Below, piece after piece: positions 12,607-28,477 of a stretch of DNA of 43,457 nt. The position numbers and the translations under genes are program-made. Below the pieces are notes generated by a model, which was not told the DNA's origin, ran no database searches, and saw only the letters and a program-made list of their open reading frames with translations. The first letter of the stretch is position 1. Each line of letters begins with the position of its first letter. The stretch is from Escherichia phage JL1: the sequence record JX865427, one strand, 5' to 3'.

Positions 12607-12671
12607 AACAACCAAGCCGAACGGGGTGGCTCACAATAACCCCGATACATGTGAAAATGAGGAATTGGAAA

Positions 12672-13400
12672 ATGGCTAAAGTCAACCTGAAAAATGTGCG
12701 CGTATGTTTCCTTAAAATTTGGGAACGCGATACCCCTAAACAGGATGGTCAAAAACCGGCATACCGTGCAGTGATTCTTCTGGATAAAGAAGATCCGCAG
12801 GTGGACAAAGTGGAAGCGGCAGCGCGCGCAGTGCTCACCGACAAGCTGAAATCCGAGAAGAATGCTGATAAGTGGATGGACCGCCACTACGCCCTGGATT
12901 CTAAGGAATGCGCAGTTCGCGACGGTGACGAGCGCGACGAAGTAACCGAAGAATTCGAAGGCATGTTGTACATCAATGCCAAATCGTTCAAACAGCCGAT
13001 CATTCAAACGTCACTCGGCGAGAAGCAGACGGAACAAGGTCTGACCGTAGAAGGCGACGAGATCGAAGGCCAGGAGATCTACTCCGGTTGTTATTGCAAC
13101 GTGTCACTCGATATCTGGGCGTGGAACAATACCAACGGCAAGGGACTCGGTGCTGGTCTTTTGGGTCTGCGCTTCCGCGATGATGGTGAATCCTTCGGCG
13201 GTGGCGGTTCTTCTTGCTCCGACGAAGACCTGGACAACGATGACGAAGATGAAAGCCCGCGCAAGTCCAAAAAGTCAAAACGTCGTGATGACGATGACGA
13301 AGACGACAAGCCGCGCAAGTCCAAAAAGTCCAAGCGCCGCGATGACGAAGATGAGGACGACGACGAAGACGAAGCGCCACGTAAACGTCGCCGCCGTTAA
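12672..13400 (+). CDS. DUF2815-type putative ssDNA-binding protein
   Basis: N-terminus MAKVNLKNVRVCF; lies between the DUF2800 nuclease and Pol A; C-terminal tandem charged repeats; GAGGA RBS. Confidence 0.65.
   Translation: MAKVNLKNVRVCFLKIWERDTPKQDGQKPAYRAVILLDKEDPQVDKVEAAARAVLTDKLKSEKNADKWMDRHYALDSKECAVRDGDERDEVTEEFEGMLYINAKSFKQPIIQTSLGEKQTEQGLTVEGDEIEGQEIYSGCYCNVSLDIWAWNNTNGKGLGAGLLGLRFRDDGESFGGGGSSCSDEDLDNDDEDESPRKSKKSKRRDDDDEDDKPRKSKKSKRRDDEDEDDDEDEAPRKRRRR
13253..13350 (+). repeat. tandem ~54-bp coding repeat (PRKSKKSKRRDD-acidic) in the DUF2815 C-terminus
   Basis: Two near-identical units ccgcgcaagtccaaaaagtc...gatgacga. Confidence 0.7.
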
Positions 13401-13418
13401 GGGCAAAGCCCACTATTC

Positions 13419-19193: not shown

Positions 19194-19529
19194 ATGAAAA
19201 TTTTACAAGAAGAGAAAAATTACTGGGCCGCACAATGCCTCGAAGCCCGCGAGCAGGCCGAACGAGCTAACGCGTTGGCGGACACCAACCAGGCGCTATA
19301 TGAAGGAGAGAAGAAAGTGCGCCAGGAGCTAGAGGAGCGCTTCGAACTGCTGTTCGAATTGATGGGGATTATGCAGCGCACCGGATACACCACCAGCGTT
19401 GCACTAAACCGCATCACTGCCGACGGGCTGCGTGAGCATTGCAAACGGGCCGAGGAGTACGTGCGTCCGAAGGGCCGCCAGTCTAAGATTGCCCTGTACG
19501 CGATAGACCCAGATCATGCAGAAGAGTGA
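19194..19529 (+). CDS. hypothetical protein (coiled-coil-like)
   Basis: 111-aa charged helical sequence. Confidence 0.5.
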   Translation: MKILQEEKNYWAAQCLEAREQAERANALADTNQALYEGEKKVRQELEERFELLFELMGIMQRTGYTTSVALNRITADGLREHCKRAEEYVRPKGRQSKIALYAIDPDHAEE

Positions 19530-20001
19530 GCAAAAAGATAGCTGGCGCACGCCGCCAGCTTTATTCAAACCGCTTCGTCGGAAGTACCGATTCCGTTACG
19601 ACATGGCGGCGAGCGACGCCAACCATCTGCTACCTCGTTACTTCACGGCAGAGCACAGCGCGCTTGAGGTGGACTGGTCAGAGTTGAAAGGGTGGAAGTG
19701 GTGCAACCCGCCGTATTCCGATCCGCTGCCGTGGGTCGAGTGCGCAGCGCATGGACGTCGGACCGTCATGCTACTAAATCAGGACACGTCGACAAAGTGG
19801 GCACGGTTGGCCCGGAAGACTGCAAACCTGATAATTCTTCTGGACTGGCGTATCAGATTTATACACGCTGTAACCGGTGAAGTCGGGCCGAGCAATAACA
19901 AGTGCCAGCAATTGATAATCTTTGACGAAGCGCCACCCACCGGCAGCGCACAAATTGAAATAATGAGCGAGGGAGAACTACGTGAATATCTTAATCGTTG
20001 A
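19516..20001 (+). CDS. phage-type DNA N6-adenine methyltransferase (Dam-like)
   Basis: N-terminal WRTPPALF and catalytic NPPY motif (WKWCNPPYSD). Confidence 0.85.
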   Translation: MQKSEQKDSWRTPPALFKPLRRKYRFRYDMAASDANHLLPRYFTAEHSALEVDWSELKGWKWCNPPYSDPLPWVECAAHGRRTVMLLNQDTSTKWARLARKTANLIILLDWRIRFIHAVTGEVGPSNNKCQQLIIFDEAPPTGSAQIEIMSEGELREYLNR

Positions 20002-20206
20002 TCGCGACCCTGCGGTCGTAGACCAAATGCAAAAAGACTACTGCATAGACCCGCGACGCAATCGTGTGGTGCGCGCGTCTCGTCCCGAATACATCTTGGG
20101 CCTTGACCTCACCGGTTGGCTTGTCATGACTCAGCGTTGCCATTTCGTGTGCAACTCCTTTACCGCGCGAAGCGCCCGTTACACCCTTATTGAGAGCTTA
20201 AAATGA
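19982..20206 (+). CDS. hypothetical protein (non-ATG start)
   Basis: 74-aa ORF with apparent GTG start, no clear RBS. Confidence 0.3.
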   Translation: MNILIVDRDPAVVDQMQKDYCIDPRRNRVVRASRPEYILGLDLTGWLVMTQRCHFVCNSFTARSARYTLIESLK

Positions 20207-20673
20207 AATTACTGATTTGTGATCTGGATGGCGTTATTAATGGATCAAGCGATGCGCGCGCCGACCTGGTGCCGGGGATAAAAACGAAATCCACCTTTTG
20301 GGCGAAGTGGCACAAAGCGCACGTCCGCGAAGACCTGAACATGGATATGCTGCCGCTACTGCGCATGTATAAAGAGCAAGGCTTCGAGATCGCGTATCTG
20401 ACAAACCGGCAGCGCGAATGCTGGGACACCACCGCCGAGCAATTGGAGGTCTTCCCGGTCGGCCGGTTGTTTATGCGCCACATGCTGGACGACACCCCGC
20501 CGCCAGAGTTTAAGGCGTGCGCCGTGTTCAAAATGGTCTGCTACGCGGACGTGTCTGAACTGGTCATCATTGAAGATTGCGAGAAGAACATCGCGGCAAT
20601 TCGTCGGGCGTGTGGTGATTTGGTCCCGAAAATTTACGCAATAAACGTTGCAAAATTCACTTGCAACCAATAG
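20203..20673 (+). CDS. HAD-superfamily phosphatase-like protein
   Basis: Motif I DLDGV at N-terminus; downstream LTNR and acidic motifs. Confidence 0.6.
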   Translation: MKLLICDLDGVINGSSDARADLVPGIKTKSTFWAKWHKAHVREDLNMDMLPLLRMYKEQGFEIAYLTNRQRECWDTTAEQLEVFPVGRLFMRHMLDDTPPPEFKACAVFKMVCYADVSELVIIEDCEKNIAAIRRACGDLVPKIYAINVAKFTCNQ

Positions 20674-20690
20674 GTTGGTTGCACTATAGT
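20661..20690 (+). promoter_or_regulatory. promoter TTGCAA-18-TATAGT over an inverted TGCAACCAA repeat
   Basis: Palindrome tgcaaccaa-tagg-ttggttgca spans -35 and spacer. Confidence 0.5.
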
Positions 20691-20735
20691 AAACGTGTCG
20701 GGGGCAATACAGCCCCCACTAAAAAGGGTAATACT

Positions 20736-21290
20736 GTGAAAGCATACGAATACTGCAAAAACGCCGCCACCACTATGGAACAGCGCGGGAAAGAAAACGG
20801 CTATGACAACGCGAAAGAAGAACGCAGCGCTAAACAAATCGCTGCCGTGTTTAACGCGCTTACCGGGCGAGACCTGTCCGAGCAAGAAGCCTGGACCTTC
20901 CTGATCTGCCTGAAGCTGGTGCGCCAGCACCGTAAGCACCAGGAAGATAATATCGTGGACCTGGTAGCGTATGCCGCCCTGCTGGGAGAGTCTTACATGA
21001 CCGTTCATGATGAGATTCAGATCGATACAACGGCGGCACAATTCGACAGCCTCAAAGGCCTGTCCATGCGTCTCGACGGTGAGATTAATGCGTATAACAG
21101 CGCAATTCGCGTTGCAGAAGATACGGTGGCCTCGTTTGGCAAGACGGTGAAGGCCCACGATTTTGGGGTTGTAGCGCAAGACGTCCAGCCTATGGTAGTG
21201 CTCACGGGCGAAGACGGATCGAAAATCTGCATGACGCAGGAAGATTTCCGTAACATGGAAAAAACACTTGTGACTGGCGCACTTAAATAA
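20736..21290 (+). CDS. hypothetical protein
   Basis: GTG at 20736 has an AAGGG RBS; the ORF-track ATG at 20661 lies inside the promoter. Confidence 0.5.
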   Translation: MKAYEYCKNAATTMEQRGKENGYDNAKEERSAKQIAAVFNALTGRDLSEQEAWTFLICLKLVRQHRKHQEDNIVDLVAYAALLGESYMTVHDEIQIDTTAAQFDSLKGLSMRLDGEINAYNSAIRVAEDTVASFGKTVKAHDFGVVAQDVQPMVVLTGEDGSKICMTQEDFRNMEKTLVTGALK

Positions 21291-21331
21291 TTTAATCGCG
21301 GGCTTCGGCCCGCATCAATGAGGGATTCACA

Positions 21332-21907
21332 ATGTACGGCGAATATGAAATAACCGGTAAACAATTCCACCTGGCGGCAATGATAGCAAGCATCGAGTTT
21401 GAACAGTGGCGCTTAAAGTCTGACGCGTGCAAACAAAGCCGCCTGGTCGGTGTGCTTGGTGAGATGTTTGCAGGCATGTACCTCGAAGGGCAGGCGGGCG
21501 GGCGTAGCTGTATCCCGCAAGGTTTGCTAATGCGTACCGGCCTGTTTAGCGCTAACACAATCGACCGCGGCGATATTATCATGGTCGGCAAGCGCAAGGT
21601 AAAATCCGGCCCCGACTTCCGAGAACATATGATTGATGCCGTCTGGACCTACGAGGTTAAGGCAACCAGCAGCATCCGTCGCGGACTGGTCGAGGCACGT
21701 TGCGCTCGCGAATACCTTACCCGTCGCGTTGCCGGTGTTATCCTGGTGGGCGTATCGTTCGGGCAACATAGCGCGCATGGCGTGATTGAAGATATTGCGG
21801 AGCCATACGTGATAGTGAACGACTGGCCCCTGGTGGAAGTGGATGGTAAGGAATACTACGAAAGCCCGCTGGTTCGGCGCAAAATGGACTGGGAGAACTC
21901 AAACTAA
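21332..21907 (+). CDS. hypothetical protein
   Basis: 191-aa ORF, last gene of the plus-strand arm, followed by the convergent terminator. Confidence 0.5.
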   Translation: MYGEYEITGKQFHLAAMIASIEFEQWRLKSDACKQSRLVGVLGEMFAGMYLEGQAGGRSCIPQGLLMRTGLFSANTIDRGDIIMVGKRKVKSGPDFREHMIDAVWTYEVKATSSIRRGLVEARCAREYLTRRVAGVILVGVSFGQHSAHGVIEDIAEPYVIVNDWPLVEVDGKEYYESPLVRRKMDWENSN

Positions 21908-21937: not shown

Positions 21938-23734
21938 TTATTTACCTTCCAGCTTCTCCACTTTATGCAACAGGTGGACGAAGGCGGCACACAGGTCCAT
22001 CAACAGCACGTTACTGTCCAGAGACAGCACATCGTCGGTATACCCGATCTCCTTGCGGTCGACTACAACCTCGTTCCCTTCCTCGTCAACCCCCTTGACG
22101 TCCTCATAAATGGCGTAACCCGGCAGCAAATGCACGTATTCCGGGTCAATCCTTGCCAGGTCCTGCGCGATAAGGCCGTATCGCTGTACGTCAGACTCCT
22201 TATACTTGAACATCGCCGGAAGCCATTGTCGAACTCGGTTGTAACTTTCCTCGCCGTCCGTGTATTTGATTTCTTTTTTAAGGTCGCGGTCTGATAGCGG
22301 CGCTTTCTGGAACTCGTTAACCGACGGGTTGCCGCTGTTACCACTAATAAGCCTGCCGTCCGGTAGGAATCGGAATAGCGCCTCAGTAAAGCCGTCCTTC
22401 CACACATGGACGCGGTAGTCTGATAAGTGGGCATCCCCGGCCCTTACCAGGCCCGCGCGCGTCCAATCCGTGTACCACTTATGCATCGTCTGCCCAACCC
22501 AGCTATCAATCCCGAAAGACGCATTGGATATAATCAAACCGTTACGCTCGACATCATTGAAGACTAGCGATTCACCACCGTTCAGGCGCAACGTGCCAAG
22601 TTTTACTTTATTGTTATCGCCCAACCCGAAATTAGAGCGCGCCTTCGCTGCCGTTGTTGCCGCAGTGCCGCCTTTTTCGATCGGAACGGTGTTTTCAGTG
22701 GCAACAGACCCAAGACCAAGATTAGAGCGCGCCTTCGCTGCCGTTGTTGCCGCAGTGCCGCCTTTTTCGATCGGAACGGTGTTTTCCGTGGCAACAGACC
22801 CAAGACCAAGATTAGAGCGCGCAGCGGCTACCGTCGTCGCGGCGGTTCCCCCTTTCTTGATCGGAACGGTGTTTTCAGTGGCAACAGACCCAAGACCAAG
22901 ATTAGAGCGTGCCGCCGATTTATCAGTTAGCCCCGCCAGGTTGCCGGTTTTGGTTAGCAGATTATCGGCGTTTACGCTTTGTGCCCATTCTTTGGCCTGA
23001 TCGCGAAATCCCTGCGCGGCAGCGCTGGCGGCCTGCGCGTCAGTCTTCGCCGTATTAGCTTTGTCACGAATAACGCCGGTTTCAGTCTTAATCTGGTTCG
23101 TCTGCGTCTTGATGGCCTGCGTATCCGCCTTAATCTTGTCCGTCTGCGTCTTGATGGTATTGGTGGCGTCGTGGACCGCCTGCGTGTCGCTGAGGATTGC
23201 CAGGCTCTGCACCTTGTATCCTTCGGCCTCATTGCGAAATCCTTCGGCCTCATTGCGAAATCCTTGCGCTGCTGCTTCAGACGCGGCGGCTTGTTGTTGC
23301 AGGTTGCGCATCTCAACTGGGTCAACTTCCTTCAGCAATTGCGACAGATAGCCCCATGACATACCCTGCATAACTTGCCCGTTCGGCAGCGTTACCGCGA
23401 TTTCTTCCTCGTCTCCGAAGATTGCGCGCCAGTTGTTTTCGTCCGCGAGCATCAAGCGCAACGCTTTCTGCGCCTGTACTGTTACGCCCATCGTTGCCAG
23501 CGACATGGTATCGCGCTTAACGCCATCCCACGCGAGGCCCGTTGCCGTGGGGCCGTCGAACGGCAGCACAAGCGTAAGCGCGGTGTCGCTTTCTACGGAC
23601 GAGATCGCAACAGTGTAAGGAACTTGCCCCACTACCAGCGATAAGAAGTCGCCTGCTTTAAACGCGGTAAACGTCGTGCCTACCCCGACAACCGCCTTGC
23701 TGTTATTCTTTACGGATAGTGTACCCGCTGCCAT
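21938..23734 (-). CDS. side tail fiber with C-terminal intramolecular chaperone (peptidase S74-like) domain
   Basis: 598 aa; three 30-aa repeats ...GGTAATTAAKARSNLGLGSVATENTVPIEK; C-terminal SDRDLKKEI... region typical of self-cleaving fiber chaperone domains. Confidence 0.8.
   Translation of the reverse strand: MAAGTLSVKNNSKAVVGVGTTFTAFKAGDFLSLVVGQVPYTVAISSVESDTALTLVLPFDGPTATGLAWDGVKRDTMSLATMGVTVQAQKALRLMLADENNWRAIFGDEEEIAVTLPNGQVMQGMSWGYLSQLLKEVDPVEMRNLQQQAAASEAAAQGFRNEAEGFRNEAEGYKVQSLAILSDTQAVHDATNTIKTQTDKIKADTQAIKTQTNQIKTETGVIRDKANTAKTDAQAASAAAQGFRDQAKEWAQSVNADNLLTKTGNLAGLTDKSAARSNLGLGSVATENTVPIKKGGTAATTVAAARSNLGLGSVATENTVPIEKGGTAATTAAKARSNLGLGSVATENTVPIEKGGTAATTAAKARSNFGLGDNNKVKLGTLRLNGGESLVFNDVERNGLIISNASFGIDSWVGQTMHKWYTDWTRAGLVRAGDAHLSDYRVHVWKDGFTEALFRFLPDGRLISGNSGNPSVNEFQKAPLSDRDLKKEIKYTDGEESYNRVRQWLPAMFKYKESDVQRYGLIAQDLARIDPEYVHLLPGYAIYEDVKGVDEEGNEVVVDRKEIGYTDDVLSLDSNVLLMDLCAAFVHLLHKVEKLEGK
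22621..22910. repeat. three tandem 90-bp repeats inside the tail fiber gene
   Basis: Units 22631-22720 and 22721-22810 differ at ~1 nt; third unit diverged centrally. Confidence 0.8.
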
Positions 23735-23755
23735 AGCTGAATCCTCTTAAATTGG

Positions 23756-23790
23756 TTGCAATCTTGGTCGAGCGGTGCAATACTAAAACT
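23756..23790 (+). promoter_or_regulatory. promoter candidate (TTGCAA-17-AATACT) for the lipoprotein cassette
   Basis: ATTGGTTGCAA motif forms the -35; weak -10. Confidence 0.35.
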
Positions 23791-23814
23791 CAACCAAATA
23801 TAGGGGATGATACC

Positions 23815-24036
23815 ATGAAAACATTAATTGTGATTTGTGCGGTTCTTCTGTCCGGCTGTGCGGTAGAACGTAACAACGGCGATTGCATTACGGTCGCTTA
23901 CGGTAGCTGCATGTTGCGCTACGTTGACGGGCAAAAAGCCCCTGCCGGGGATGTTGACATGCGCTTCGCTGGCCTGTCCGCGGATAGTGACGGCAACTTC
24001 TCTGGTACGGTATCAGTTAAATCTCGGGAGTGGTAA
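23815..24036 (+). CDS. small lipoprotein
   Basis: Signal peptide MKTLIVICAVLLSGC with lipobox LSGC; AGGGGA RBS. Confidence 0.65.
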   Translation: MKTLIVICAVLLSGCAVERNNGDCITVAYGSCMLRYVDGQKAPAGDVDMRFAGLSADSDGNFSGTVSVKSREW

Positions 24037-24038
24037 TT

Positions 24039-25004
24039 ATGGGCGCTGGAATACTTATAGACTACAACGACGGAAGGCCGGTGATGGAGATAACCGCCGG
24101 ACTTCGCGCTCCGTCATACTGCACTACGTTTGATCAGCGCTGCCAGTCCGATAAGACGCTGACCATTAATACTCCGCTAACCCCAGGGTCGGATCTTGTC
24201 GTTGCGCTCACGCGTCCGGTAGAAGTGATTGAGGTCTTCGACCAAACGCTGGTGCTCCCGGACCCATTCTACGTTACGTCTGTACAACGTAACGGGGATA
24301 ACGGCATTATTCTACGAGGTGCGGACGCGTATAACGCATACAGTGGTCTTCCGCAATGGGCTGGGATAATTATGGAAGTGCTGCCGGTTGGGTCGCGCAA
24401 TGCGGGCTTACTGGTGGCGAACTCTACTGACTTCACCGCGATATCGAACGTATCCCGGCTAATGACCTGCCGATACGCGCAGCGCGTGCGTGTAAACGGC
24501 AGTATGCCGCTGCCGGTGGGTGGCATCCCGTTCGCGCGCTGGGATGACGGCAACGTGTCGGTAGGATTCGACGGCGGTAGTATTATCGTCCGCAACGCGT
24601 CCTATGGTGGTATTGACGATGTGGCGGCTTCGGTGGATATGGACCTGGTGATCTTCAACAATACGCCGCCAGCACCGGGGACCGGCATTACCATGACTAA
24701 CAACCAGGGCCAGGTCACGTTCTCCACTGTGAATAAGCCGTTTGTCCTCAATTCCGTAATTAATATCAGCACTGGTGGTCAGAATATTGGCAACAGCCTC
24801 GTACAGCTCTCATATACCGGCGCGCTCATTAAGAACAACAGCGGATATAACCACGTGCGAATGAACGGGATACGCATGGCGGGCAACGTGGTTAGCGCGG
24901 CACGAAATCGCGTGATCGGTAACTACTCACGGCAGCAATTCCAGATGCCTAATCGTAATGTAACCGTACCCACACCGTTACTAGTCATCCCTAACATGTA
25001 TTAG
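24039..25004 (+). CDS. hypothetical beta-rich protein
   Basis: 322 aa, G/N/T/V/S-rich without signal peptide; GGGAG RBS; co-oriented with the lipoprotein, opposite to flanking tail genes. Confidence 0.5.
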   Translation: MGAGILIDYNDGRPVMEITAGLRAPSYCTTFDQRCQSDKTLTINTPLTPGSDLVVALTRPVEVIEVFDQTLVLPDPFYVTSVQRNGDNGIILRGADAYNAYSGLPQWAGIIMEVLPVGSRNAGLLVANSTDFTAISNVSRLMTCRYAQRVRVNGSMPLPVGGIPFARWDDGNVSVGFDGGSIIVRNASYGGIDDVAASVDMDLVIFNNTPPAPGTGITMTNNQGQVTFSTVNKPFVLNSVINISTGGQNIGNSLVQLSYTGALIKNNSGYNHVRMNGIRMAGNVVSAARNRVIGNYSRQQFQMPNRNVTVPTPLLVIPNMY

Positions 25005-25027
25005 AAAGGGGCCAGATGGCCCCTTCG
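25005..25027. terminator. bidirectional hairpin terminator between convergent genes
   Basis: Stem ggggcc / ggcccc with 4-nt loop; T-rich flank on the minus strand. Confidence 0.55.
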
Positions 25028-25030
25028 CAT

Positions 25031-28000
25031 TTACCACGTCCCCACTTTCACCCTACCACCGCCAGGTAATGGCACGTTGACGCCAGTTGCGTCGATCGTA
25101 ACGGACCCGCCGGAGAATCCGAAATTACCCGTAGTCGCGAACAAGTTGCCTCGGACCGTTACGTTGTTGAACTCCGCCCCGCCATCCTTCGCGATACGCC
25201 AGCCGCTGCGACCAGGATTCCAGTTATTGGATTGCAGCGTGTCCGTGATCTGTGCGAAGTTGATGGACGCATTCTTGATGCGTGCGGTGTCAATGTACAC
25301 CTGTCCGCCGTCAACAATAAACGCGGACGAAAGCGACCCATTCGACGGGTGCATGATGTAGAACTGGTCCGCCTTGAACGCGATGCGTGATTTAACCGCG
25401 CCACCTTCCGCAACGACGGAAAGCTGCATACCGGCGTCGTAGTAAGCCCCGTTATACGTCACGCCCGCCTTAAGGCTATATGTGGCGCTGCCACCAGCAT
25501 GGTTAAACGTAGACGTCATCTTCTGCTCGATAGCGGCGGACTGCTGCCCGAACTGTGCCGCCACCTGGGTCTTGTACTCCGCCAGCGCGCCCGCTACGTC
25601 GGCAGTCGCCGTTTGTACCTGCTGGATGGCGGCTTCCTGTTCCCCGAACTTAGCGGCAACAGTTTGCTGATACTTGGCGAATGCTTGTTCGTGCGTGCTT
25701 TGCGCGGTCTGCAACGTGTGGATTGACGCCTCCGCATCATCAAGTCGTGTGCCGATCAACGTTTCCAGTTGCGCGACTGCCTTGTGGGCGTCTGCCGCCA
25801 CGTTATACGCCACCTTGATTTCCGCATAAATCCCTTTGTACTTGGCGCGGGCGTTGAATAACTGCTGGGCATCTGTGAGCATTGACTCGTAAATGCCTTG
25901 CGGGATCGTGTTAATAGCTTCCTGGAAGTGTTTACCATCCTCAGAAGTCAAGAACTCGTCATCAAGCCCCTTCATGTACTCGTCAACTTTGTCACTCACC
26001 TGGCCTTCGAACGGGGCGGACCAGTCCGACAGGTTGCCGATTTTATCCGCTACACGGGCGCGCAACTGCTGGTATATGCCGAACTCCAGCGACGTTTGCG
26101 CGTACTCCGCGCCAGGATAGGGGACGTTTGTTAAGAATTTCCATTCCGTTTCACCCGTCTTGCGCACTTCAAGCTCGGTGTATGATATATCAGTCGCAGC
26201 GTTGTTGTGGTTCCACTTCCATAGAATCTGGTGCAGACCCGAAATCGCGTTGGTGATGATTGGGGCGTTAAGCCCACCGAGGCGACCTTCCACCGGCGTG
26301 ATCGCGGAAGACACCCACGGGGACGAGATTTCGCCCATACCAATTGCGCGGACGCGTGCCTGATAGTTACCGGAGAACACGTTAGGGATGTGCGCCCCAT
26401 TCGACGCCGTGCGCGGGATATTCACCCAGTCGTTACCCCACTGGATCTCCATATTCTGCAGGCTAGTACGCCTCCACTGGATTTCATACACCACGGCATC
26501 TTTCACCGGCGGGAAAACAATATCCACGTTGGTGATTAGCTGGCCTTGCGATGAGATCTGCGACGGGGTGATGGTAACGGATTCCGGCCCCTTCATTACA
26601 CCGTCTGGCACTTGCGTAAAGATGCCTGGGTCTAGTCGTGCGCCATTATCAACGGCATCATACTTGCTATCGTTGTATTCAATCCCGCGCACCGAGAAAG
26701 TGCTGGTAGAGTCGTCATATTCCAGATCGGTGATGCGGAATTTCTGCAACTGGATATCATCGCCGTCAACGCAAAACGGTTGGTCTGGAATCGGGTCGGC
26801 ATCCAGTGCGGTTTTTAGCGTGACCTTGTTGCCGTTGACGCTGGCGATCTCGCGAGTCTCCACATTTCCGCTATCGGTGCGCACCAGGAACTTATCACCA
26901 GGGCGGAATGTGATTTCGCTGTCCGTGTTCAGCACGGTACGCGTTCCTGGGTCCGACAACAGGCGACCGCCGCGAGTCTCGAATCCGCCAGAAATGTTTG
27001 TATCCGCGATCGCGACTACGCTACCAGGAATAAAGAATAACCCTTCCATGCCCACCTTAAAACTAACTTGCTGGTCAAGCTGGTTGGATATTAGCGCCCA
27101 ATGCCCGCGGCGTTGCGCTTCGGATTCGCGCGTACAGCCGATCGCCGTAATATCAAGACGGTTAATCTTATGGCGGCGTACCAGTTCAACACGTTGGCCC
27201 GTTGCGATGGCGTCATCGTAGTGGTTTTTCGGATTGCCGTATGCTACCGCGAATGTGGAATAGCGAGTTTTCTGGCTGCCAGATGCGTAGTCGAATCGCC
27301 CATCAATAACAGATGCGTTGGTGATAGTGTGCGACACTGCTGCGACCGGTTGGTCACTGACGATATTCAACATCTGGTTGCCCCACCAGGTCATTCCGGC
27401 GAAGATGGCGGCCAAATCCTTAAGCACGGTCCAGGCATCCGTCTGTGACTGAATGTACATATCATTCTTAAAGCGGATTTCTCGACCACCGTTGCCGTCG
27501 CTGACCAACTGATCGCAGCGCTGCGCGATCTGGTAGAGCGCGTACCGGTTTAACATTTGCGGTTTGATACGCCGACCGAGGCCGAAGCGCTCAGTAATAC
27601 AAATATCGTACCAGTGCCACGCAGGGTTATCCGTCCATGCGCGTTTAAACGTGCCGTCCCAGTCCCCGGAATAAGTATGATTAATCGGGTCGTAGTTGTT
27701 CGGTATTAGAACTTTGCGGCCTTTGCACTTGATGGACACGCGCGGGATGTTCTGGAACGCTTTGGCGTCGAACTCCACAAACAACAGCGCGGTTAGCGGG
27801 TAACGCAGGCGGGCGTCGATAATCTCAGTGATGGACTGCACCTGGATATCATTAACCACTTTCGCCGATGTGGAGTCTGCCGTTATGCGGTGCACCTCCA
27901 CGCGCCAGCCGGTGTTAACGTTCGGCGGTAGCTCGATGCGGTGATCGCGCTCGTATAGCGACATTGTTTTACCAACGGCAGCGAAGGTAAACTCACGCGG

Positions 28001-28477
28001 GTCGGCGTTATCCGTATACACAACGATCTTATAGTCGATGCGCCCACCCACCAGGTCGCCATTATCTTCGTTTGTGTACAGGGCCGGAATGCCGATGCGA
28101 ATGCGCACGGCGTCCAGACTGGTATCGTTAATCTGGCGTACCCACGGCGTGCCGTTTTCCAGTTTTACGCCAACAGATTGCTCACTTTCCACCGCTGAAA
28201 ATCCGTGGATCACATCCTGGTGCTGTGTGCCGGGGCGGAACTCCACACGCGCGCCTGGGAAGTTTTCAGACAGGTCTGCATTCTGGATCGGTGTTCCGTC
28301 CAGATATACGCGCCGCCGTAATTCGTTAGGGTCTGGAATACCTTCGAACTCACCTTCTCCCAGCGCAAGCAAGATGCGGATTTTAGCCAGCGAATGCAGG
28401 CTATCGGGCGTCTCCTGTGGGGTGTGCTGTTTGCCGCCGCCGCCTTTATGCCCTGTGACGTCGTAGATAATCGTCAT
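25031..28477 (-). CDS. tail tip / host specificity protein (lambda J-like)
   Basis: 1148 aa; N-terminus with GGGGK...PDSLHSLAKIRILLALGEGEFEG, characteristic of J-family central tail fibers. Confidence 0.88.
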   Translation of the reverse strand: MTIIYDVTGHKGGGGKQHTPQETPDSLHSLAKIRILLALGEGEFEGIPDPNELRRRVYLDGTPIQNADLSENFPGARVEFRPGTQHQDVIHGFSAVESEQSVGVKLENGTPWVRQINDTSLDAVRIRIGIPALYTNEDNGDLVGGRIDYKIVVYTDNADPREFTFAAVGKTMSLYERDHRIELPPNVNTGWRVEVHRITADSTSAKVVNDIQVQSITEIIDARLRYPLTALLFVEFDAKAFQNIPRVSIKCKGRKVLIPNNYDPINHTYSGDWDGTFKRAWTDNPAWHWYDICITERFGLGRRIKPQMLNRYALYQIAQRCDQLVSDGNGGREIRFKNDMYIQSQTDAWTVLKDLAAIFAGMTWWGNQMLNIVSDQPVAAVSHTITNASVIDGRFDYASGSQKTRYSTFAVAYGNPKNHYDDAIATGQRVELVRRHKINRLDITAIGCTRESEAQRRGHWALISNQLDQQVSFKVGMEGLFFIPGSVVAIADTNISGGFETRGGRLLSDPGTRTVLNTDSEITFRPGDKFLVRTDSGNVETREIASVNGNKVTLKTALDADPIPDQPFCVDGDDIQLQKFRITDLEYDDSTSTFSVRGIEYNDSKYDAVDNGARLDPGIFTQVPDGVMKGPESVTITPSQISSQGQLITNVDIVFPPVKDAVVYEIQWRRTSLQNMEIQWGNDWVNIPRTASNGAHIPNVFSGNYQARVRAIGMGEISSPWVSSAITPVEGRLGGLNAPIITNAISGLHQILWKWNHNNAATDISYTELEVRKTGETEWKFLTNVPYPGAEYAQTSLEFGIYQQLRARVADKIGNLSDWSAPFEGQVSDKVDEYMKGLDDEFLTSEDGKHFQEAINTIPQGIYESMLTDAQQLFNARAKYKGIYAEIKVAYNVAADAHKAVAQLETLIGTRLDDAEASIHTLQTAQSTHEQAFAKYQQTVAAKFGEQEAAIQQVQTATADVAGALAEYKTQVAAQFGQQSAAIEQKMTSTFNHAGGSATYSLKAGVTYNGAYYDAGMQLSVVAEGGAVKSRIAFKADQFYIMHPSNGSLSSAFIVDGGQVYIDTARIKNASINFAQITDTLQSNNWNPGRSGWRIAKDGGAEFNNVTVRGNLFATTGNFGFSGGSVTIDATGVNVPLPGGGRVKVGTW

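Follow-up and report, generated by a model that had tools for sequence, protein, structure and literature searches.

What are two genes doing in the tail region of a siphovirus when they are read against the direction of every tail gene around them? In the DNA of Escherichia phage JL1 (sequence record JX865427; the window, in what follows, is the whole stretch of 43,457 nucleotides that was analysed), the open reading frames place two + strand genes within positions 23756-25004, while all surrounding tail genes lie on the - strand, including the tail assembly and tape-measure genes beyond the J-like gene. The region had been put forward in a preliminary description as a two-gene unit that runs counter to the tail operon, with a lipoprotein and a second, larger product, and this layout is borne out by the strands of both reading frames and of their neighbours. 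The features of the region, in order of position, are as follows.

21938-23734, - strand: lateral tail-fibre gene, 598 aa, with a C-terminal Peptidase_S74 chaperone domain (PF13884, phrog_1980); context, divergent from the cassette
23756-23784, + strand: candidate sigma-70 promoter (-35 TTGCAA at 23756-23761, 17-nt spacer, TG at 23776-23777, -10 AATACT at 23779-23784)
23803-23807, + strand: Shine-Dalgarno-like GGGGA, 7 nt before the lipoprotein ATG; relatives keep GGGGA
23815-24036, + strand: gene of a 73-aa outer-membrane lipoprotein, assigned to the Rtp45/SEOeko family by PF24052, the Rtp45 match and SEOeko identity
24039-25004, + strand: gene of a 321-aa receptor-binding protein (RBP), assigned to the DUF6453, RBPOeko/Rtp44 family by PF20051, PDB matches and Oekolampad gp25 identity
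25006-25025, both strands: GC-rich hairpin AAGGGGCC-AGAT-GGCCCCTT, 8-9 bp, between the convergent RBP and J-like stops
25031-28477, - strand: J-like central tail fibre / tip attachment protein gene, 1148 aa (PF24801, PF13550, PF09327); context, outside the cassette

Judged by homology, the cassette is very probably the terminal-receptor module of Dhillonvirus phages, in which an RBP that binds LptDE is paired with an exclusion lipoprotein. The module as such is already known, having been described since 2021 (PMC8594841) and explained structurally in 2025 (PMC12685063).

The two products and their families

The first gene encodes a protein of 73 aa with the N-terminus MKTLIVICAVLLSGC-AVERNNGDC..., in which a signal peptide and lipobox follow the pattern MKTLIVICAVLL-SG-C15-A16; the Ala at +2 fits sorting to the outer membrane, as far as the sequence pattern tells. 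The lipoprotein of 73 aa with a lipobox that had been predicted here is thus confirmed, both by the L-S-G-C motif ending at Cys15 and by the match to Pfam family PF24052 (Phage_lipoprotein; E=2.5e-20, 72.6 bits with a cut-off of 27, residues 3-73 on positions 8-80 of an 80-position profile). Because this match is above the cut-off, the small reading frame can be taken as a real gene. A longer frame initiated at TTG (23752-24036, 94 aa) was considered as the lipoprotein gene and rejected, as the orthologues begin at the ATG and in the longer product the signal peptide would be buried. Among NCBIfam models, only sub-threshold matches to the TraV signal peptide were found for this protein.

Its closest characterised relative is gp26 (SEOeko) of phage Oekolampad, which is likewise 73 aa long and differs at four positions (94.5% identity), and among Dhillonviruses the protein is nearly invariant. 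In the PDB it matches chain 9rps_D, which is Rtp45 (E=8.6e-8), with 21 of the 59 aligned positions identical by hand count; the proposed link to Rtp45 rests on this identity of about 36%. In the alignment the two lipoboxes coincide, and Cys24 and Cys32 of the window protein, which are invariant in nine Dhillonvirus orthologues, fall on the disulfide pair Cys30/Cys38 of Rtp45. In Rtp45 this disulfide adjoins the strand paired with beta6 of LptD (PMC12685063).

The second product falls into a family of RBPs. It matches Pfam PF20051 (DUF6453) at E=5.9e-120 (400.4 bits, cut-off 25), with residues 5-298 on positions 1-290 of the 291-position profile, and over residues 1-321 it matches the PDB entries 9rpt_C, 9rpw and 9rqi at E=7.7e-186; no NCBIfam family was matched. 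Compared with Oekolampad gp25 (RBPOeko), which is also 321 aa long, it is 86.9% identical over the full length, with 42 substitutions. The length given earlier, 322 aa, is off by one, since the frame from ATG 24039 to the stop at 25004 codes for 321 aa. The mechanical reading frame that starts at GTG 24030 (324 aa) was also set aside, as the orthologues and the PDB construct begin at the ATG with MGAGILIDY.

The composition attributed to this protein, rich in G, N, T and V, proved correct (V 10.6%, G 10.0%, N 9.3% and T 7.2%, together 37%), and E (1.2%) and K (0.9%) are scarce. It had also been said to carry no signal peptide, and its N-terminus, MGAGILIDYNDGRP, indeed bears no such features; the sequence is polar in composition and no hydrophobic segment was found in it. 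A single-sequence AlphaFold2 model of the RBP reached a mean pLDDT of 28, too low for the model to be used. The fold is nevertheless settled, because a structure with 87% identity has already been solved.

With respect to the Drexlerviridae-type phages OzMSK and SU57, the RBP is 41-43% identical to its counterparts (41.4% for OzMSK), and it is 34.2% identical to that of Bas14 TheodorHerzl, with 100% coverage for OzMSK and TheodorHerzl. It therefore has more than 30% identity to the RBPs of three phages whose dependence on LptD is experimental, namely Oekolampad, OzMSK and TheodorHerzl (for TheodorHerzl see PMC8594841). The allele itself is a common one, because sixteen phage records, e.g., Pandora71, WF5505 and BF9, carry RBPs that are at least 95% identical to it. 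A scan of IMG/VR gave only six loci, a number too small for selection to be analysed site by site. The same type of RBP is also present in Queuovirinae phages that have no adjacent lipoprotein, so the pairing of the two proteins is not obligatory.

When 11 RBPs of this type are compared, variable positions occur all along the sequence, with a modest rise beyond residue 240. The substitutions that separate the window protein from RBPOeko are somewhat denser in the C-terminal third and densest at about 237-309, where they flank Gln299. Gln299 itself is conserved in the window RBP. In RBPOeko this residue hydrogen-bonds Ser350 of LptD and is the sole RBP contact residue named in the main text of the structural study (PMC12685063). 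With 42 substitutions and Gln299 lying in the denser region, the fine specificity of the two RBPs could differ.

Locus order and expression signals

A megablast search with the locus returned 124 phage records, nearly all of them Escherichia siphoviruses of the genus Dhillonvirus, with top matches to Pandora71 (93.2%), BF9 (90.1%), EK99P-1 (90%) and the BASEL phage Bas84 (85%). By its sequence, then, the JL1 window belongs to a Dhillonvirus, a small siphovirus of the Oekolampad/SO-1 kind. In Oekolampad (Bas18) the order of genes is lateral fibre (-), gp26 of 73 aa (+), gp25 of 321 aa (+) and J-like gene (-), and both order and orientation of the cassette are the same in the window, Oekolampad, Pandora71 and SO-1. 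Oekolampad gp25 and gp26 are thus the orthologues of the two products (with PDB 9RPT, 9RPW and 9RQI available for RBPOeko), and the two phages further share the lengths of both proteins, the 2-nt junction between the genes, the intergenic promoter region and the terminal hairpin; they differ in the substitutions given above and in the distal part of the lateral fibre. This fibre is 49% identical between the two phages, conservation being confined to the N-terminal ~150 aa, a pattern that is expected of a fibre directed at the O-antigen, and the divergent fibre probably sets the O-antigen range. The J-like protein, in comparison, is 95.9% identical to its Oekolampad counterpart and is presumed to be the docking platform for the RBP.

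In the window, Oekolampad, Pandora71, SO-1, phiG7, SU57 and OzMSK alike, the RBP gene is the immediate neighbour of the gpJ homologue at the 3' end of the latter, which is the site of the hypervariable RBP locus. In the window its stop (25002-25004) and that of the J-like gene (25031-25033) are convergent. In the T1-like LptD phages SU57 and OzMSK, too, a unit of lipoprotein gene followed by RBP gene is convergent with the J-like gene.

Within the cassette, the lipoprotein stop TAA (24034-36) is followed after 2 nt by the ATG of the RBP gene at 24039, with a GGGAG motif upstream, and translation of the two genes is closely coupled. A single transcript that starts in the divergent intergenic region of 80 nt probably covers both. 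It had been claimed that the unit has its own promoter and its own terminator, and both claims hold in part. An element of promoter type begins exactly at 23756; it has 8/12 matches to the consensus plus an extended -10 (TGn), and since the consensus scan was run with a threshold of 9/12, it falls below that threshold and the scan is silent on it. The hexamers are invariant in the window, Oekolampad, Pandora71 and SO-1. This conservation says little, because the entire 80-nt region is 97% identical. We regard the element as a plausible promoter of the cassette, weak by consensus and with a function deduced from its sequence.

The GC-rich hairpin is likewise present, but the J-like gene, which is convergent, shares it, so that it is not the cassette's own. 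Folding gives -15.7 kcal/mol for the + strand and -17.3 kcal/mol for the - strand, with z of about -3.4 on both. Seven phages, which represent three lineages, have a hairpin at this position, with stem sequences that differ and pairing that is kept, and at the equivalent site the SU57 record has a bidirectional Rho-independent terminator as its annotation. The hairpin at 25006-25025 is a probable bidirectional terminator, on which the scan was silent because there is no good U-tract on the + strand. In all, the consensus scan for promoters and terminators gave only a promoter-like site on the - strand (23834-23807) and, within a gene, a terminator-like site of the frequency expected by chance.

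A proposed mechanism and its alternatives

Maffei et al. in 2021 proposed the locus downstream of gpJ as an RBP-plus-exclusion locus in Drexlerviridae, Dhillonvirus and Queuovirinae (PMC8594841), and the LptD specificity of Bas83-85 was later predicted from it (PMC11990801). RBPOeko bound to the LptDE LPS translocon was then solved by cryo-EM (PDB 9RPT; Dunbar et al. 2025, PMC12685063). In this complex the RBP inserts deep into the extracellular side of the open LptD barrel, with an interface of ~1,700 square angstroms; the LptD changes Y671N and D352Y abolish binding of RBPOeko, and loss of extracellular loop 4 (EL4) abolishes infection (PMC12685063). The same paper presents Rtp45 as the superinfection-exclusion lipoprotein of phage Rtp, solved with LptDEM (PDB 9RPS). 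It binds LptDE from the periplasm, in the space between LptE and LptM, and extends a hairpin up the lumen; EL4 is thereby shifted by as much as 20 angstroms, to a position that sterically prevents the RBP from binding (PMC12685063).

Transferred to JL1, where all function, including virion location, promoter use and timing, is what we infer, the mechanism would run as follows. Both genes would be expressed on one transcript, from the intergenic promoter to the hairpin shared with the J-like gene. The RBP would be made without a signal peptide and attached non-covalently to the J-like central fibre at its distal end; its place at the tip is suggested by the position of the locus and by AlphaFold-Multimer models of other Dhillonviruses. 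Binding of the RBP to LptDE would commit the phage to DNA injection. The lipoprotein, in turn, would be exported and lipidated at Cys15, and its Ala at +2 would direct it to the outer membrane, where it would sit in the inner leaflet. It may then occupy the periplasmic face and lumen of LptDE, where it would push extracellular loop 4 outward and block its movement; LptDE would thus most likely be blocked from inside infected cells. Virions that use the same receptor would consequently be unable to bind infected cells or debris, which amounts to superinfection exclusion, and progeny would be kept from being lost to debris by adsorption. The suggestion that the region combines an exclusion lipoprotein with a receptor-binding or host-range protein is therefore supported by homology, through RBPOeko, SEOeko and Rtp45.

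Could the same architecture serve another terminal receptor, such as FhuA, BtuB, LamB, YncD or another porin, with the lipoprotein blocking that protein instead? The genus as a whole uses FhuA, LptD, BtuB or LamB (literature including PMC8594841 and PMC11990801), and the 42 positions at which the RBP differs from RBPOeko leave room for a change. However, receptor type at this locus follows unrelated protein families: in an independent genetic screen of 255 phages, RBP families at the locus tracked receptor identity and were coherent above 30% identity (bioRxiv 10.64898/2026.04.02.716166). The window RBP is far above this level with respect to the protein whose LptDE complex is solved (87%), is 34-41% identical to further RBPs of experimentally LptD-dependent phages, and is accompanied by a lipoprotein of Rtp45 type, so that a switch of receptor seems to us a very slim prospect. 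Still less credible, to the point of being nearly negligible, is the idea that the 321-aa protein resides in a membrane of the host cell or is a moron, and is no component of the virion. It comes from labels in PHROG and RefSeq, namely that of phrog_1265 ('membrane protein; moron, auxiliary metabolic gene and host takeover') and the annotation 'membrane protein' that SO-1, Bas84 and further phages carry, but such a label is an inherited annotation and not a result. The polar, G/N/T/V-rich sequence lacking a signal peptide or hydrophobic segment speaks against it, as does the orthologue RBPOeko, which was obtained in soluble form on purification and attaches to LptDE from the extracellular side (PMC12685063).

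The role of the lipoprotein leaves somewhat more to discuss. It might not act primarily in exclusion and might instead manipulate LPS export or the envelope (e.g., in lysis or takeover), or it might be an assembly or chaperone factor of the RBP. Expression of SEOeko failed in the work of Dunbar et al. (PMC12685063), so exclusion of the Dhillonvirus type is something that we infer; translational coupling to the RBP gene would suit a helper of the RBP, and binding to LptDE, which is essential, could have physiological effects. Against this, Rtp45 shifts EL4 into a conformation that the RBP cannot bind, and a chaperone is hard to reconcile with compartments, as export and lipidation take the lipoprotein out of the cytoplasm, whereas the RBP lacks a signal peptide. 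The same type of RBP, moreover, works in Queuovirinae without a lipoprotein next to it. A primary role other than exclusion is accordingly rated as highly improbable, and we retain the reading of an LptDE-binding RBP with an exclusion lipoprotein.

Within the latter reading, a more far-reaching but unlikely version can be formulated, in which the RBP allele recognises LptD loop variants, or tolerates LptD resistance mutations, that are beyond the reach of Oekolampad. If true, the RBP allele would be a natural specificity variant for mapping or re-engineering LptD recognition. In a second, separate version, the lipoprotein may also modulate LPS export in infected cells, because LptDE is essential.

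Related systems and significance

Beyond Oekolampad, the nearest systems are those of Rtp (Drexlerviridae; Rtp44/Rtp45), OzMSK and SU57. They share with the window both Pfam families, a unit that converges on the J-like gene, and a bidirectional terminator, and their modules have LptD as receptor; in Rtp the disulfide cysteines are also the same. The differences lie in identity (about 41-43% for the RBPs of OzMSK and SU57, about 36-39% for the lipoproteins), in the phage family and in the upstream neighbours.

The pair pb5 (Oad) and Llp of T5 follows the same logic, in which the tip of the central fibre carries its RBP as a separate protein and a small, periplasm-facing lipoprotein encoded nearby inactivates the receptor from inside. 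Cor of T1, phi80 and N15 is similarly a small phage lipoprotein that excludes at the level of the receptor. Llp and Cor act on FhuA, whereas the receptor proposed here is LptDE. Llp structures are present in the PDB, and the PDB search returned no Llp chain for the lipoprotein (E up to 10) and no pb5 chain for the RBP (E up to 1). The match of the lipoprotein to the Cor PHROG (E=6.6e-4) covers residues 1-30 only, i.e., the signal peptide and lipobox, and Pfam gave PF24052 alone, so membership in Llp or Cor was rejected. The likeness to Llp and Cor that had been pointed out at the start stands as one between functional analogues; it does not extend to kinship in sequence, as the module is of the Rtp44/Rtp45 (LptD) families. 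The mechanisms differ as well, since Llp works by long-range allostery via a TonB-dependent transporter and Rtp45 by steric displacement of EL4 (PMC12685063).

The observation is real but ordinary, because the module has already been characterised in Dhillonvirus coliphages. The locus adds one more allele and not new biology, the structures of near-identical proteins having already made the case. What it does provide is a confident in-silico assignment of the receptor of the JL1 central fibre, namely LptD; as LptD is essential and a target both for drugs and for phage steering, the module matters to the field.

Strand layout around the lateral tail-fibre gene

Beyond the lateral tail-fibre gene, the genes are encoded on the plus strand, so that they share the orientation of the cassette of lipoprotein and receptor-binding protein (RBP) and run opposite to the tail operon; since plus-strand units lie on either side of it, the tail-fibre gene is an isolated minus-strand island.

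19516-21907, plus strand: Dam-like methyltransferase (NPPY motif), putative phosphatase and hypothetical proteins, named from their Oekolampad counterparts
21938-23734, minus strand: lateral tail-fibre gene, with repeats at 22631-22913 and 23218-23265

A consensus scan returned a sigma-70-like site at 23807-23834 on the minus strand (ATCACA-16-TATCAT with TG, 9/12 matches), which shares bases with the beginning of the lipoprotein gene and faces the tail-fibre gene, the chance expectation for the region accommodating one such site. It could serve as the cassette promoter's divergent partner, from which transcription of the tail fibre resumes past the hairpin that follows the J-like gene.

The larger of the two fibre repeats is a tandem array of 90 bp x 3.1, giving three units of about 30 aa (...ARSNLGLGSVATENTVPIEKGGTAATT...), while the other is 21 bp x 2.3 and encodes EAEGFRN. 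The fibre is 49% identical overall to that of Oekolampad, with conservation confined to the first ~150 aa, and its C-terminal end is a Peptidase_S74 intramolecular chaperone domain (Pfam). Elsewhere in the window, a tandem repeat of 54 bp x 2.3 (86% matches) is found at 13237-13361, where ORFs 12651-13400 (plus) and 13000-13413 (minus) are listed.

LptD-type RBPs in other phages and doubtful host labels

Among Queuovirinae-type genomes, the Seuratvirus phiG7 (locus L004) has an RBP of the LptD type, as in the window, with 77% identity, and a 60.7-kb IMG/VR contig (locus L011) has one with 62% identity to that of the window. Directly upstream of the RBP gene there is no lipoprotein ORF in either (L004:2377-2500; L011:1277-1500); in phiG7, the gap between the RBP gene and the divergent gene annotated next to it is only 124 nt (2377-2500), and no lipoprotein was detected by tblastn within 2.5 kb. 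In these genomes, the exclusion gene is either absent or located elsewhere.

OQ221563.1 (database matches H12/H34), named "Acinetobacter phage NJ01" with A. baumannii as its stated host, is 88.5% nucleotide-identical to the window locus, and its RBP is 90.7% identical. Its host label looks doubtful, because the phage carries an E. coli-type LptD module. A similar question arises for "Campylobacter phage A120", whose RBP shows 60% identity.

Both cassette families in podoviruses

Outside the window, families PF20051 and PF24052 are both present in Gordonclarkvirinae/Kuravirus podoviruses, in which the genes are unlinked.

L013:3647-4666: podovirus locus, phage ManiMatter Bas94
L014:1468-1749: podovirus locus, phage phiEco32

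By Pfam profile, a 339-aa "membrane protein" matches PF20051 DUF6453 (E = 4e-26), its gene having the tail-fibre genes on one side and the transglycosylase/ejection genes on the other, and a 93-aa lipoprotein from the early region matches PF24052 (E = 2.4e-36). In a full-text literature search for LptD and Kuravirus, the only paper listed was that on BASEL-2, in which LptD is mentioned three times, each time in connection with Dhillonvirus. These findings suggest that the podoviruses, which are O-antigen-dependent, could use LptD as a terminal receptor that has gone unrecognised.
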